Below are positions 12,429 to 17,302 of a stretch of 24,980 nt of DNA, piece after piece. Each line of letters opens with the position of its first letter. Within the stretch, counting starts at the first letter, position 1. The notes below the pieces were generated by a model. It made no database searches. It saw only the letters and a program-made list of their open reading frames with translations, and had not been told where the DNA came from. The stretch lies in assembly GCA_030066135.1 (NCBI GenBank), contig JASJCD010000018.1:1-24980 (forward strand). Reading direction: 5' to 3'. Both the position numbers and the translations under genes were made by a program. Origin of the DNA: Desulfobacterales bacterium (GTDB lineage Bacteria > Desulfobacterota > Desulfobacteria > Desulfobacterales > UBA5852).

Positions 12429-14039
12429 TCATAGGGCCGCGATGTCGGCCCATTTCAATCCGAACCTGGCCAGATATTTTCGCAGGCGATCCGCATCATT
12501 GGGTTTTTTCTTGGCCTGGCGGGACACGGCAAACAGCCGGCGGCCCGCATCGGAGAGGTTGCGCGAATGCCGGCAGACGCGCAACACCGCTTCGAGCTGG
12601 GCACGGTCGAAAGGATCGATAACGGAAAGTTGATCGGCGTTGAAAAAAGACGCCAGTATGGTCCGGCGCCGATCCGCGGATTCGCCCATATGCTGCCAGC
12701 CGCCCTGCAGACGGGCGATTTCTTCCCTGACCTCGTTCACGGTGATGCGGCCGCGGGGCGCCAGGGTGGCCATGCGGGTCACGGCACCGATGAGATCGCG
12801 GAAATTGGCCTGCCAGACGGCGCGCGGCGTGGCCGCAAATTCCAGAAACATGCGCCGGGCCTCATTGTTAAACGTTACCCGCCGGCCGGTCTTGCGGGCG
12901 AAGCGGTCCAATTCGTAGTCCAGGTTGGGGGCGATATCTTCGGTGCGCTCTCGCAGTCCGGGCATGCGGAAGGTCCACAGGTTGATACGGGCCAGCAGAT
13001 CCTCCCGAAACCGGCCCTGGAACACGTCGTGGTCGAGTTCGTGATTGGTGCCGCAAATGAGTTGAAAATCACTGCGGGCCTCCCGGTCGGAGCCCATGGG
13101 CAGAAAGGTTTTCTCTTCGATGGCCCGTAGCAGCATGGACTGCTCGTCCATGCCCAGTTCACCGATCTCGTCCAGAAAGAGCATGCCGCTATCGGCTGCC
13201 CGCAGCAGTCCCGGCCGGTCCTGGAGCGCGCCGGTAAAAGCCCCTTTTTTATGGCCGAAAAGGGCGGACATGGCGGCATCCCCCCGCAGGGTGGCGCAGT
13301 TGACCTCCACGAAATCGCCCTTCAACTGGTGACGGGCCTTCTTGAGTTCGAAAACACGTCGGGCCAAGCGTGATTTGCCGGCGCCGGTGGGCCCCGTCAG
13401 CAATATGGGTTCCACCGAATGCAGGGCCACCCGCTCGATCTTCTCGATCAGCTGGTTGAAGGCCGGGTTGCGCGTCTCGATGCCCGACTTCAGAAAAGAG
13501 AGATCATCGTCGCGTTCCTGCTGAAAACGCCCGGCCAACTGGTCGTAGCGCGACAAATCGAGATCGATGATGCTGTGGGTCCCCGCGGCGGTTTTGCCTT
13601 TCACACTTTTCCCCGGCCCGGTCTGTACCAGCCGGGCCGGGAAATAACGTGCTTCGGTGAGCAGGAAAAGGCAGATCTGGGCCACGTGGGAGCCGGTGGT
13701 GATGTGCACGAGGTATGCTTCGCGCTCCGGGTCGAAGGCATACCCGGAGGCAAAATCGTGCAGCACACCGAAGACTTCTTCAAAATCCCAGGGATCGCGG
13801 AAGACGACGGGATGGGGAACCACTGCCGTGTCCGGCGACACCAGGCGGATATCTTCGGCCACACGCTTCATCAGGCTCTTGAACCGGGTCTGGTAGAGCA
13901 ACTCGAAGCGATCGATGTTCAATGCCGCCTGCTGGCACAGCCCCACGGTAGGGCGCCAGCGCTCCCAGCGCGATTCGCGTTTGCCGGTATCCAGGGTGGG
14001 GCCCAGAAGCCCGATCACAATTGTTTTCATACGATTCAT
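12429..14039 (-). CDS. rtcR: Sigma54-dependent transcriptional activator RtcR (N-terminal CARF-like domain + AAA+ sigma54-interaction domain + C-terminal HTH)
   Basis: N-terminus MKTIVIGLLGPTLD... matches the RtcR-type CARF start. AAA+ Walker A (GPTGAGKS) and the sigma54-contact GAFTGA motif (LFGHKKGAFTGA) are present. Divergent from rtcB. The true start may be the second ATG, MKTIV at 14030. Confidence 0.85.
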   Translation of the reverse strand: MNRMKTIVIGLLGPTLDTGKRESRWERWRPTVGLCQQAALNIDRFELLYQTRFKSLMKRVAEDIRLVSPDTAVVPHPVVFRDPWDFEEVFGVLHDFASGYAFDPEREAYLVHITTGSHVAQICLFLLTEARYFPARLVQTGPGKSVKGKTAAGTHSIIDLDLSRYDQLAGRFQQERDDDLSFLKSGIETRNPAFNQLIEKIERVALHSVEPILLTGPTGAGKSRLARRVFELKKARHQLKGDFVEVNCATLRGDAAMSALFGHKKGAFTGALQDRPGLLRAADSGMLFLDEIGELGMDEQSMLLRAIEEKTFLPMGSDREARSDFQLICGTNHELDHDVFQGRFREDLLARINLWTFRMPGLRERTEDIAPNLDYELDRFARKTGRRVTFNNEARRMFLEFAATPRAVWQANFRDLIGAVTRMATLAPRGRITVNEVREEIARLQGGWQHMGESADRRRTILASFFNADQLSVIDPFDRAQLEAVLRVCRHSRNLSDAGRRLFAVSRQAKKKPNDADRLRKYLARFGLKWADIAAL

Positions 14040-14178
14040 ATATATAAATTTTTATCTTAATTTATATATTTTTGTTTTTTTCGCGTCAACCCTCCTTTTC
14101 CCACCACTAACGCCTGTCAATTAATTTTGATAATCATTTAAATTATTTGTGTATCTATCTCGACACTTTTTCCCGATT

Positions 14179-14194
14179 TGGCACACCCGTTGTA
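14179..14194 (+). promoter_or_regulatory. Sigma54 (-24/-12) promoter TGGCAC-ACCCG-TTGT, reading toward rtcB
   Basis: Seen directly: GG and GT elements with exact 10-nt spacing. One mismatch to the TGGCAC-N5-TTGC consensus at the -12 C. Lies in the rtcR-rtcB divergent intergenic region next to an AT-rich block (14040-14160) that could hold UAS or IHF sites. Confidence 0.55.
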
Positions 14195-14903: not shown

Positions 14904-16076
14904 ATGAAGTGGGTTAAAAAAGAAAAAACACAGCGGATCCCCATCAAATCGTGGTGTGATCCCATCGACGACAACGCCTTGGCCCAGGCCATGAACCTGG
15001 CCCGGCATCCGGCCATGGTCCATCACGTGGCCCTCATGCCCGACTGTCACCAGGGATATGGAATGCCCATCGGTGGTGTCATCGCCTGCAGGGATGTGGT
15101 CATCCCCAATGCCGTGGGGGTGGATATCGGTTGCGGCATGTGCGCCCTGAAGACCGATTTTCCGGCCGATGATCTCACGACCGAAGCCATCAAATCGATC
15201 ATGGGCAAAATCCGTGAGGTCATCCCGGTGGGCTTTAAACGCCACGCCCAGCCCCAGCCGTGGAACCGGTGGTCCGATGCACCGTCCATCCCGGTGGTGG
15301 AACGGGAGCTTGAGAAGGCCAAGTGCCAGCTGGGAACCCTGGGGGGCGGTAACCACTTCGTGGAAATCCAGAGTGGCGACGACGGCGCGGTCTGGCTGAT
15401 GATCCATTCCGGAAGCCGAAATTTCGGAAAGCAGATCGCCGATGTCTACCACCGCAAGGCTCAGGCCCTTTGCCGCACCTGGCACGTGGACCTGCCGCAC
15501 AAGGACCTCGCGTTTCTGCCGGTGGACACACCGGAGGCCGAGGCGTACATCGCAGCCATGAACTACGCCCTCGACTTTGCGGCCGAAAACCGGCGCCTGA
15601 TGATGGCGCGGGCCGCCCGGTGCGTGGCCCGGGTGATCGACTGCGGCTTCGAGGCCGAGGTCAATATTCACCACAATTACGCCGCCCGGGAACACCATTA
15701 CGGTGAAAACGTCTGGATTCACCGTAAAGGCGCCACCGCGGCCAGGGCGCAACAGATGGGGATCATTCCGGGCTCCATGGGAACCCCGTCCTACATCGTT
15801 GAAGGCCTGGACAACCCGGAAAGCTTCGCATCCTGTTCCCACGGCGCCGGCCGGAAGATGGGCCGGGCCCAGGCATCGCGAACCCTTACGCGTGAGGCTT
15901 GCGACCGGGCCATGGCAGGCATCGTCTTCGGTCGCTGGGGCAAGGACCGCAAGGGCCGCACCGACTTCGGTGAAGCACCCCAGGCCTACAAGGACATCGA
16001 AGATGTGATCGTTGCCCAGCGCGACCTGATACGGCCCCTGGTGAAGTTGAAGCCGCTGGGCGTCATCAAAGGATGA
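14904..16076 (+). CDS. rtcB: RNA-splicing ligase RtcB (3'-phosphate / 2',3'-cyclic phosphate RNA ligase)
   Basis: 390 aa. RBS AGGAG 9 nt upstream of ATGAAGTGG. Hallmark motifs DCHQGYG, GGGNHF, HSGSR, NYA and CSHGAGR. The upstream in-frame extension to 14739 was rejected. Confidence 0.9.
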   Translation: MKWVKKEKTQRIPIKSWCDPIDDNALAQAMNLARHPAMVHHVALMPDCHQGYGMPIGGVIACRDVVIPNAVGVDIGCGMCALKTDFPADDLTTEAIKSIMGKIREVIPVGFKRHAQPQPWNRWSDAPSIPVVERELEKAKCQLGTLGGGNHFVEIQSGDDGAVWLMIHSGSRNFGKQIADVYHRKAQALCRTWHVDLPHKDLAFLPVDTPEAEAYIAAMNYALDFAAENRRLMMARAARCVARVIDCGFEAEVNIHHNYAAREHHYGENVWIHRKGATAARAQQMGIIPGSMGTPSYIVEGLDNPESFASCSHGAGRKMGRAQASRTLTREACDRAMAGIVFGRWGKDRKGRTDFGEAPQAYKDIEDVIVAQRDLIRPLVKLKPLGVIKG

Positions 16077-16195
16077 TGGCGGGGATGCGGAGAAATTTGA
16101 AACCTTAAAAATTTCGGGATACCCAGGTATCCCGCTCAACCGGCCGGGCGTCTTGACGCGAAGCCGTCAACCCGGCCAAGAAAAGGAGTAAAACA

Positions 16196-17302
16196 ATGTA
16201 CCCGCTCAAGCGAATTCTCATCCGTTCCTACGAAAAAGGCCTGCTGTTCCGGGATCGAGAATTCCAGTCCGTGCTGGACGCCGGCAAGTACTGGTTCGTC
16301 GATCCGCTGAACAAGGTCCGCGTGGACATCGTCTCCATGCGGGCGCCCTGGCTGATCCACGAAGATCTGGACGTCCTGATCAAGGCCGGCGTACTGGCCG
16401 ACACTGCCGTGGTTCTGGATCTGAAGGACTACGAGCGCGCCCTGGTCTGGGTGGACAACCGTTTCGCGCGTGTCCTGGGCCCGGGTCAGTATGCCCTCTG
16501 GAAGACCCTGCGCGACATCCGGTATGAAATCGTGGATGCCCGCACGGTGCGCTTCGACCACGCCGATGCCAACGTCATCCGCAATGCGCCCGGAACGGGC
16601 GACCTGCTCAATGTCTCCTTCGTGGAGCAGGGCTATGTCGGTGTCCTCTTCCAGGACGGCAAGTACAAGGATACCTTCAAGCCCGGGCAGTACCTGTTCT
16701 GGAAGGGCGTCGGCAAGGTCAAGTGCTACCATGTGGACATGCGTGAGACCATCGTGGACATCTCCGGCCAGGAGATCATGACCGCCGACAAGGTGACCCT
16801 GCGGATCAACGCCATGGTCACCTGTAAGGTGGTGGACGCCAAGGTCTACACCATGGCCGCCGAAGACGCCCGCCAGGCGCTCTACCGCGAGGCCCAGCTG
16901 GCCCTGCGGGCCGTTATCGGCACCTGCGAGCTGGACAAGCTGCTCAGCGAAAAGGAAGCCGTCGCGACCGCCCTGGAGCAGGTGCTCCGCGGCCGGGCTG
17001 AAGATCTGGGCCTGGCGATCATCGATCTGGGGATCCGGGATGTGATCCTGCCCGGAGAGATGAAGGAGCTGATGAACAAGGTCATCGAGGCCCGCAAGGC
17101 CGCCGATGCCAACCTCATCACCCGCCGGGAGGAAACGGCCGCCATGCGCTCCCAGGCCAACACCGCCCGCATCCTGGAGAACAACCCCACCCTGATGCGG
17201 CTGCGCGAGCTGGACGTCCTGGAGAAGATCGCCGAGAAGTCCAAGCTCAACGTGGTCCTGGGCGAAAAGGGCCTGGCCGACCGCATGGTCAACCTCCTGT
17301 AG
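16196..17302 (+). CDS. SPFH / band-7 (stomatin-prohibitin-flotillin-HflK/C) domain protein
   Basis: 368 aa. Strong RBS AAAAGGAGTAAAACA before the ATG. SPFH core followed by a long coiled-coil-like tail (EARKAADANLITRREETAAMRSQANTARILENNP). 120 nt downstream of rtcB on the same strand, probably co-transcribed. Confidence 0.85.
   Translation: MYPLKRILIRSYEKGLLFRDREFQSVLDAGKYWFVDPLNKVRVDIVSMRAPWLIHEDLDVLIKAGVLADTAVVLDLKDYERALVWVDNRFARVLGPGQYALWKTLRDIRYEIVDARTVRFDHADANVIRNAPGTGDLLNVSFVEQGYVGVLFQDGKYKDTFKPGQYLFWKGVGKVKCYHVDMRETIVDISGQEIMTADKVTLRINAMVTCKVVDAKVYTMAAEDARQALYREAQLALRAVIGTCELDKLLSEKEAVATALEQVLRGRAEDLGLAIIDLGIRDVILPGEMKELMNKVIEARKAADANLITRREETAAMRSQANTARILENNPTLMRLRELDVLEKIAEKSKLNVVLGEKGLADRMVNLL

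Follow-up and report, generated by a model that had tools for sequence, protein, structure and literature searches.

Bacterial Rtc systems are induced by damage to transfer RNA (tRNA), and their natural substrates and cofactors are poorly understood. In Salmonella one RtcR-controlled promoter drives Ro60, tRNA-mimicking Y RNAs and RtcB. According to the abstract of Burroughs and Aravind of 2016, SPFH/Band-7 modules and 'a novel tRNA-like molecule' are said to be potential scaffolding cofactors of RNA-repair systems. The sequence analysed here, called the window throughout, is the whole stretch of 24,980 bp from contig JASJCD010000018.1 of a Desulfobacterales bacterium, and all component coordinates refer to it. 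The window contains what is very probably an RtcR/sigma54 RNA-repair operon of the 'Band-7/b7a-tRNA' type. Its tRNA-like element is, by covariation in about ten helices across several phyla, one module of a multi-domain RNA of ~550 nt. This large multi-domain RNA is the new feature, as the accessible literature gives only a tRNA-like molecule.

The kind of system that combines RtcB, Band-7 and a tRNA-like RNA is credited to Burroughs & Aravind 2016 in the accessible part of a preprint, which describes the RNA as lacking experimental validation as of 2018 (Wang et al., bioRxiv 10.1101/312249). No experimental test of the system was found in the literature covered on 'b7a-tRNA' or on RtcB with SPFH, a coverage that does not extend to Burroughs & Aravind 2016 itself. 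In the predicted system RtcB stands beside Band-7/SPFH and a tRNA-like noncoding RNA (ncRNA), often under control of RtcR, and protein plus RNA are proposed to act as scaffold or cofactor in the manner of Ro60 with Y RNA. The SPFH gene PA4582/PaFlo8 sits inside the rtcR-rtcB-rtcA locus of Pseudomonas aeruginosa (PMC8619066, PMC13086221). Fragments of tRNA that end in a 2',3'-cyclic phosphate activate RtcR (PMC7790460).

The window possesses an rtcR gene on the minus strand (12429-14039), divergent from the operon and encoding an activator of 536 amino acids (aa) with a CARF - sigma54 AAA+ - HTH layout. Its product matches Pfam RtcR/CARF (E 3e-80) and Sigma54_activat (E 6e-48), and passes the NCBIfam equivalog NF038308 'RNA repair transcriptional activator RtcR' with 811 bits at a cut-off of 650. 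In the PADLOC scan of defence-system libraries it is labelled RtcR--CARF_AAA_HTH, and nothing else is recognised. The sigma54 -24/-12 promoter (14179-14193, plus strand, TGGCAC-N5-TTGT, letters TGGCACacccgTTGT) is preceded by an AT-rich spacer and is the sole sigma54 motif match in the window, with a chance expectation of 0.15. The motif TGGCAC-N5-TTG between rtcR and the RNA is kept in 11 of 13 RtcR-linked loci and is invariant in the four closest loci. An untranslated stretch of ~700 nt connects promoter and rtcB, and holds the large structured RNA (14283-14860, plus strand; ~570 nt), i.e. the predicted 5' part of the operon transcript, with the tRNA-like module inside it. The rtcB gene (14904-16076, plus strand; ribosome-binding site AGGAG at 14893-14897) encodes an RNA ligase of 390 aa, matched over its full length by Pfam RtcB (E 5e-116). 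It is 83% identical to the RtcB of L001 (L numbers denote loci of the survey described below), which occupies the same position. After a spacer of 119 nt follows the Band-7/SPFH gene (16196-17302, plus strand; 368 aa; Pfam Band_7, E 6e-28) with a strong ribosome-binding site, AAGGAG. Terminator scan and sequence reading place two intrinsic terminators at 17619-17650 and 17671-17702 (plus strand), the first with a 10-bp stem of seven G-C pairs followed by TTTTGTTTT, the second with a stem and a T run; this pair is likely the end of the operon transcript. By sequence analysis, promoter, RNA, rtcB, Band-7 gene and terminators form one predicted transcription unit.

The components named in the original prediction, which was made from the letters of this DNA alone (rtcR, sigma54 promoter, tRNA-like leader, rtcB, SPFH gene and a 2H phosphoesterase open reading frame, ORF), are all present at or near the positions it assigned to them, and its picture of an Rtc module under RtcR and sigma54, in which the leader holds a tRNA-like element and an SPFH gene follows rtcB, is borne out. 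The rtcB gene it placed is there, with a start that has to be moved by one base to the ATG at 14904. It had also described the locus as free of rtcA and archease. For rtcA this holds across the 25 kb, as tblastn with three RtcA proteins gives no match anywhere in the 24,980-bp window; an rtcA pseudogene or remnant in 17303-18500 was rejected on the same blank result. For archease it holds within the larger flanking ORFs, whose Pfam scans contain neither an RTC cyclase nor an archease. The opinion that the architecture had not been described does not stand, since the kind was already predicted, as far as the accessible part of the preprint goes (bioRxiv 10.1101/312249), and since PA4582/PaFlo8 lies in the rtc locus of P. 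aeruginosa. The window is a minor variant of this computationally predicted kind, with rtcB ahead of Band-7 and no rtcA.

Compared with the predicted Band-7/b7a-tRNA system, the window possesses a Band-7 gene of the specific ~368-aa group, a tRNA-like RNA upstream on the same strand and linkage to RtcB, but lacks rtcA and carries rtcB between RNA and Band-7. Of an RtcR-regulated Rtc operon it has RtcR, the sigma54 promoter and RtcB, with no RtcA in the operon. The rtcR-rtcBA locus of Escherichia coli shares the divergent rtcR, the sigma54 promoter and the rtcB ligase; it has, however, rtcA, no Band-7, no ncRNA and a short leader, as opposed to the ~700-nt structured leader of the window. In the P. 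aeruginosa locus (PA4581 rtcR, PA4582/PaFlo8 SPFH, PA4583 rtcB, PA4585 rtcA) the SPFH gene is embedded as in the window, but gene order differs and rtcA is present. The Salmonella operon rsr-yrlBA-rtcBA resembles the window in its RtcR/sigma54 control, in an ncRNA with a tRNA-like domain co-transcribed with rtcB, and in encoding an RNA-binding protein partner that forms rings or cages, a property predicted by analogy for the Band-7 protein of the window. Here, in contrast, the partner is SPFH/Band-7 and not Ro60/TROVE, rtcA is absent, and the RNA is about four times larger than YrlA, with no Rfam family other than tRNA above the gathering score. A bacterial Y RNA/Ro60 particle is not indicated either, with no match to a Y RNA model and no rsr gene in the scanned ORFs; Pfam scans of window ORFs, which did not cover every small ORF, contain no TROVE domain.

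The large structured RNA and its tRNA-like module

Aligned with the loci L001-L003, the leader of the window is nearly throughout (~14283-14860) better conserved than the DNA upstream of the promoter, and a hidden Markov model (HMM) built from those four sequences detects homology in distant phyla, 5' as well as 3' of the tRNA-like module. The family HMM matches the window at 14270-14907 (E 5e-71), and across the family the RNA is 463-604 nt long (median 554 nt). Near-invariant blocks in the 53-locus alignment lie at 14301-14312, 14361-14388, 14524-14543, 14657-14684, 14790-14808 and 14832-14848, and remain near-invariant across Desulfobacterota, Planctomycetota, Lentisphaerota and others. The tRNA-like module is the one part of the RNA with a match in Rfam 15, in the window as in two distant relatives; the flanks match no family.

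The 5' domain (14288-14399, plus strand) is closed by helix P1 (14288-14297 with 14390-14399) and contains the near-invariant blocks CCAGCGGCGC (14301-14310) and GTGTGTACCGGACATGGGATCTGAC (14362-14386). P1 occurs as a duplex of 8-14 bp with differing sequence in all 51 loci examined, and its cognate duplexes have a mean energy of -16.4 kcal/mol versus -10.1 kcal/mol for non-cognate ones (p 2e-19). Two small hairpins follow 3' of the tRNA-like module on the plus strand, GGGGG-UGCCA-CCCCC (14483-14497) and GACC-CUGAGAA-GGUC (~14500-14514), whose stems, compared by eye, vary in sequence yet are kept in relatives. The boundaries of the second were also set by eye, and a placement at 14501-14517 is possibly a few bases too far 3'. 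The 3' domain (14525-14849, plus strand) is a long irregular hairpin composed of the helices P5 (14525-14546/14827-14849), P6 (14549-53/14821-25), P7 (14555-63/14633-41), P8 (14643-61/14808-20), P9 (14665-76/14794-14806) and P10 (14681-88/14786-93). P5 spans ~290 nt and includes a tandem G.A/A.G internal loop; P9 joins two of the most conserved blocks. In alignment A4, P5 is paired in 84.7% of cases versus at most 54% when the strands are slid, with compensatory changes at 14 of 15 pairs, a result that none of 500 shuffles reach. P5-P10 are each paired in 80-91% versus 21-51% slid and have 5-17 covarying pairs (0 of 300 shuffles reach this), where P6-P10 were derived with RNAalifold from the 3' domain of the 53 loci and tested on the same alignment. 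Helices are placed outside the ~100 nt at the apex of the 3' hairpin (14689-14785) and outside the part of the 5' domain that P1 encloses.

A GCAGCG/CAGCGGCGC-like motif occurs four times in the most conserved blocks (14301-14310, 14357-14364, 14666-14674 and 14797-14804), and two of its copies sit in the pairing strands of P9; the other two might be sites of protein binding or of tertiary contacts.

A protein-coding leader was rejected, as indels among the closest relatives of 1, 2, 4 and 5 nt, which are not multiples of three, and the covariation of the helices argue against it; stop-free stretches are uninformative at 62% G+C. Two further RNAalifold helices from the four closest sequences (CUGUCGG/CUGACGG and CAGGG/CCCUG) conflict with the family-wide P1 and were therefore set aside as clade-specific or spurious. 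In single-sequence minimum free energy folding the central region reaches z = -1.4 and the leader as a whole -2.6, values that are uninformative alone. The Rfam match 'Pseudomonas sRNA P11' at 14167-14260 (19 bits, E 0.11) was rejected; it overlaps the sigma54 promoter, and the P11 consensus has a TGGCAC-like motif. The PAO1 position of P11 is 1.93 Mb, which we take to be far from the rtc locus (PA4581-PA4585).

The tRNA-like module of b7a-tRNA type (14404-14476, plus strand) scores 43.9 bits with the Rfam tRNA model (E 8e-8) and is called 'tRNA-Asn(att)' by ARAGORN at 14403-14480. In the window its D arm and T arm are canonical, the acceptor stem has six of seven pairs with a C2.A71 mismatch, the anticodon loop CGAUUAA carries G33 and 'AUU', and the 3' tail reads C-ACCA. 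Cloverleaf pairs were counted in alignment A3 over 53 orthologous modules. The D stem is invariant (100% of cells paired) and shows no compensatory changes; the anticodon stem and the T stem are each paired in 99.6% of cells, with compensatory changes at all five pairs and at three of five pairs, respectively. Only 66% of cells are paired in the acceptor stem, where the inner three pairs are kept and the outer two are paired in ~26% of sequences. No variation is seen in the GG of the D loop or in the GTTCGA of the T loop. The anticodon loop comprises 5-7 nt with 26 different 'anticodons', U33 is present in 24 of 44 seven-membered loops, and a discriminator plus CCA (N73-CCA) follows the module in 10 of 53 loci. 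By the canon of a decoding tRNA (7-bp acceptor stem, U33, 7-nt loop, used anticodon, CCA end) the module falls short. It retains D arm, T arm and anticodon stem, i.e. the L-shape and elbow of a tRNA, but conserves neither of the ends important for aminoacylation and decoding. With its degenerate acceptor stem and hypervariable anticodon loop the module is therefore a tRNA mimic, not a decoding tRNA. In L066 (6485-6651) and L069 (6478-6643) two tRNA-like modules lie in tandem inside the RNA.

Pairing of the RNA with the Band-7 gene

The gene neighbourhoods of Band-7 homologues were surveyed in 80 genomic loci from Desulfobacterales, Geobacter/Desulfuromonadales, Lentisphaerae/Victivallales, Lindowbacteria and many Planctomycetota, as well as in three viral loci. 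The family HMM detects the RNA in 78 of the 80 genome loci and in two of the three viral loci, in each case 5' of Band-7 and on its strand. The four HMM misses comprise L022 and L083, without any upstream sequence, and L044 and L059, with only ~1.2 kb upstream. The association of the SPFH gene with this neighbourhood is conserved, and because the pair of RNA and Band-7 recurs in 78 of 80 related genome loci, the juxtaposition is not due to chance. As judged from sequence comparison, RNA and Band-7 form a near-obligate pair across several phyla, with the Rtc enzymes as exchangeable and optional neighbours; the conserved core is the RNA-protein pair and not the Rtc enzymes.

The 17 loci that carry RtcR usually have the order rtcR (minus strand) - tRNA-like RNA - Band-7 - ~340-aa gene - rtcB, in which Pfam RTC (E 1e-67 to 1e-81) identifies the ~340-aa gene as RtcA. 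The original prediction had the SPFH gene stand in place of rtcA; since Band-7, rtcA and rtcB co-occur in most RtcR-linked relatives, the SPFH gene is instead an addition and the loss of rtcA a local variation. The order RNA - rtcB - Band-7 without rtcA is found in the window and in its closest relative L001 only (1 of 80 relatives), from which we infer a lineage-specific rearrangement that put rtcB between RNA and Band-7 and removed rtcA from the locus. About 15 of 80 relatives have rtcB linked to RNA and Band-7; most Planctomycetota loci lack this linkage. At the DNA level the window resembles L001-L003 from the rtcR end (~12435) to the Band-7 stop codon (17303).

The spacer between rtcB and Band-7 contains a perfect 9-bp palindrome, CGGGATACC-CA-GGTATCCCG (16115-16134), with no T-run on the plus strand. 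It may form a hairpin that serves processing or stability between the two cistrons, or it may be a scar left when rtcB was moved to this place.

The loci L002 and L003, closest after L001 with 83% Band-7 identity, consist of rtcR, RNA and Band-7 (in L002, RtcR at 4523-6127, then the RNA, then Band-7 at 7001-8104), and neither rtcB nor rtcA follows within 7 kb. This layout suggests that RtcR, RNA and Band-7 may be a functional unit by themselves.

In Planctomycetota, an array of ~20-40 tRNA genes (Phe ... Cys) that covers most anticodons leads up to RNA and Band-7, which stand at its 3' end on the same strand. Such an array may be the main tRNA set of the cell or a mobile 'spare' one. Such arrays are found in L011, L014, L017, L021, L026, L034, L039, L051, L052, L057, L062, L072 and others (at ~400-6400 in each), and RtcR, RtcB and RtcA are missing from their vicinity. 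One contig carries two array copies, L011 and L021, 50 kb apart. The same 35-tRNA array with RNA and Band-7 is present on a 94-kb predicted viral contig of IMG/VR (L081, 1902-6551). Genes 3' of Band-7 in the Planctomycetota loci have unrelated functions and include no hidden repair genes.

The Band-7 orthologous group contains more than 5,600 homologues, almost all of 366-376 aa and 59-97% identical; their alignment A1 has 96 invariant columns, and one homologue is annotated at source as 'PA4582'. The protein of the window has no transmembrane segment, the top 19-residue hydropathy being 1.59 in a stretch that contains aspartates, and no NfeD gene adjoins its gene. AlphaFold2 with a 24-sequence alignment (predicted local distance difference test score, pLDDT, 80) models the N-terminal 180 aa as beta strands, with five-stranded beta repeats at 4-47, 71-114 and 138-181, followed by an SPFH alpha/beta domain (185-284) and a long helix (287-348). 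For the SPFH and helix part, Foldseek searches of the PDB return stomatin (E 2e-16, 26-34% identity), HflK/C, prohibitin, erlin and flotillin, with E down to 2e-16, all of which form rings or cages. Full-length structural alignments (415-434 columns) are obtained with major vault proteins only (E 6e-11 to 8e-9). The Band-7 protein thus has no membrane anchor and is predicted to have a layout like that of the major vault protein, which argues for a soluble oligomeric assembly over a membrane tether; oligomerisation itself would follow by analogy with other SPFH proteins.

The likeness to the eukaryotic vault (major vault protein, vault RNA and TEP1) comprises the beta repeats, an SPFH-like 'shoulder' and a long helix, all predicted for Band-7, and the pairing of the protein with a dedicated ncRNA. 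The differences are three repeats versus nine, 368 aa versus ~890 aa, an identity of 11-12%, an RNA that is unrelated in sequence to vault RNA, and a closed cage in the case of the major vault protein, whereas the Band-7 model is a monomer. With the membrane SPFH scaffolds (stomatin, HflK/C, prohibitin, QmcA) the Band-7 protein has the SPFH domain and coiled-coil helix in common, but these possess an N-terminal transmembrane helix or hairpin and often an NfeD partner, and Band-7 has neither.

Proposed mechanism and competing explanations

We slightly favour the view that the whole package is an RtcR-induced RNA-protein cofactor or scaffold for tRNA repair, a mechanism that is much less certain than the identity of the system. 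Damage to tRNAs would activate RtcR, upon which the cell would co-produce the RNA, the RtcB ligase and the Band-7 protein. Since every SPFH protein with a characterised structure oligomerises into a ring or cage, Band-7 may likewise assemble into a soluble ring or cage and bind the large RNA. The resulting ribonucleoprotein (RNP) would serve as scaffold or cofactor, whose tRNA-shaped module may gather tRNA-recognising enzymes (RtcB, and RtcA where present) or broken tRNAs, in parallel to what is proposed for Ro60 and Y RNA in the Salmonella rsr-yrlBA-rtcBA operon. Given that the RNA is no stray tRNA-like gene but a large molecule of several covarying domains, and that the protein is predicted to be soluble and vault-like, a neighbourhood prediction becomes a concrete object for purification, imaging and deletion.

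Several points weigh against this scaffold. Most Planctomycetota loci possess the RNA/Band-7 pair but no Rtc gene within 7 kb, so the pair does not strictly need RtcB for its core function. Co-occurrence and analogy underlie the RNP and scaffold steps, and the AlphaFold model is a monomer with a predicted TM-score of 0.56. In Salmonella and E. coli, RtcR reportedly requires RtcA to become active (PMC7790460, PMC9650030), and the window has no rtcA, which may lie elsewhere in the source genome. Furthermore, the RNA is always located on the same strand, directly upstream of coding genes, as expected from a cis-acting leader, i.e. a structured 5' untranslated region that controls elongation, translation or stability of the downstream genes, for instance as a sensor of uncharged or damaged tRNA or as a substrate of RNase P. 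The position of the RNA right after the sigma54 promoter in RtcR-linked loci and the lack of a terminator between RNA and rtcB agree with such a leader. With ~550 nt and about ten covarying helices, however, the RNA is far larger than known leaders, and no terminator/antiterminator alternative was found in it. The first downstream gene varies (rtcB in the window and L001, Band-7 elsewhere), the distance to Band-7 reaches 0.8-2 kb (L032, L033, L063, L077, L045), and the RNA of Planctomycetota follows tRNA arrays and not a dedicated promoter, which makes a cis-acting leader improbable.

A decoy or sentinel is unlikely as well, if less so than a leader. Here the tRNA-shaped module would bait anticodon nucleases (colicin, PrrC, VapC-like toxins) and soak up or inhibit them, or else, once cut, yield a cyclic-phosphate fragment that feeds back on the CARF domain of RtcR, with Band-7 protecting or presenting the RNA. 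Hypervariability is confined to the anticodon loop (26 'anticodons', 5-7 nt, U33 often lost), with the rest of the module near-invariant, a pattern expected under an arms race or under relaxed decoding constraint. RtcR senses tRNA fragments, YrlA has been suggested as a competitive inhibitor of an anticodon nuclease (PMC7790460), and the large tRNA arrays of Planctomycetota and of the predicted viral contig fit a context of tRNA attack. For a bait, though, a mimic of ~75 nt would suffice, leaving ~480 nt of additional conserved structured RNA and the obligate Band-7 partner unexplained, and loops that are short or have lost U33 would be poor substrates for nucleases that read the anticodon loop. 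A membrane-bound repair complex, in which SPFH anchors RtcB at the membrane, as the original prediction considered, and the 2H phosphodiesterase replaces the end-healing of RtcA, is highly improbable. SPFH proteins are classically membrane-associated, and stomatin, HflK/C and prohibitin are among the top structural matches. The Band-7 protein nevertheless has no transmembrane helix or hairpin (maximum 1.59, with Asp), three beta repeats resembling those of the soluble major vault protein ahead of SPFH domain and helix, and no NfeD partner seen, so that a tether is unlikely. The 2H gene does encode an enzyme that acts on 2',3'-cyclic phosphates 1.2 kb downstream, but it was rejected as a component of the module: none of the 80 loci carries a homologue, and the gene lies beyond both terminators (17619-17702) and beyond the synteny break at 17303, outside the conserved block. 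The three differences from known Rtc operons that had been highlighted thus are one published feature (SPFH plus tRNA-like RNA), one local loss (rtcA) and one coincidence (2H). Finally, an ordinary or decaying tRNA gene in a coincidental neighbourhood, to which the ARAGORN call of tRNA-Asn and the Rfam tRNA score above the gathering threshold would point, is scarcely credible. Bacteria decode Asn with GUU, while the module has the anticodon AUU, G33 in place of U33 and the C2.A71 mismatch; moreover, it is embedded in conserved structured flanks, and the same module with varying 'anticodons' precedes Band-7 in 78 of 80 loci.

A wider and tentative reading, rather doubtful at present, extends the scaffold beyond Rtc operons. 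The 'b7a-tRNA' might be a new class of large ornate ncRNA that forms, with a vault-like soluble SPFH cage, an RNP handling damaged or surplus tRNAs, plugged either into RtcR/RtcB operons or onto the ends of giant tRNA arrays, and this RNP might be an evolutionary relative of the eukaryotic vault. If true, the link between SPFH cage, tRNA mimicry and RNA repair bears on the unresolved function of eukaryotic vaults. To our knowledge, large structured bacterial RNAs are rare, and each of those characterised (RNase P, tmRNA, OLE, GOLLD, ROOL) has revealed unusual biology.

Flanking genes and minor features

The 2H phosphoesterase ORF (2',5' RNA ligase/LigT-like) occupies 18104-19015, with the Pfam domain at residues 137-287; an Arg/Ala-rich N-terminal extension precedes the catalytic domain, and the true start codon is uncertain. 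The preceding ~800 nt (17303-18100) contain no sizeable ORF and have a lower G+C content (0.54); a hairpin at 17317-17351 and a possible small ORF from an ATG near 17502 are located there. Pfam scans identify the other flanking genes as MFS transporter, DUF3141, L,D-transpeptidase, dodecin, DUF2459 and PEBP, i.e. unrelated housekeeping functions. The region 8659-12419 possesses long ORFs without Pfam match, 8659-10488 (minus strand, 609 aa), 10274-10858 (plus strand) and the overlapping pair 11523-12419 (plus strand) and 11547-12320 (minus strand), whose reality is doubtful in G+C-rich sequence.

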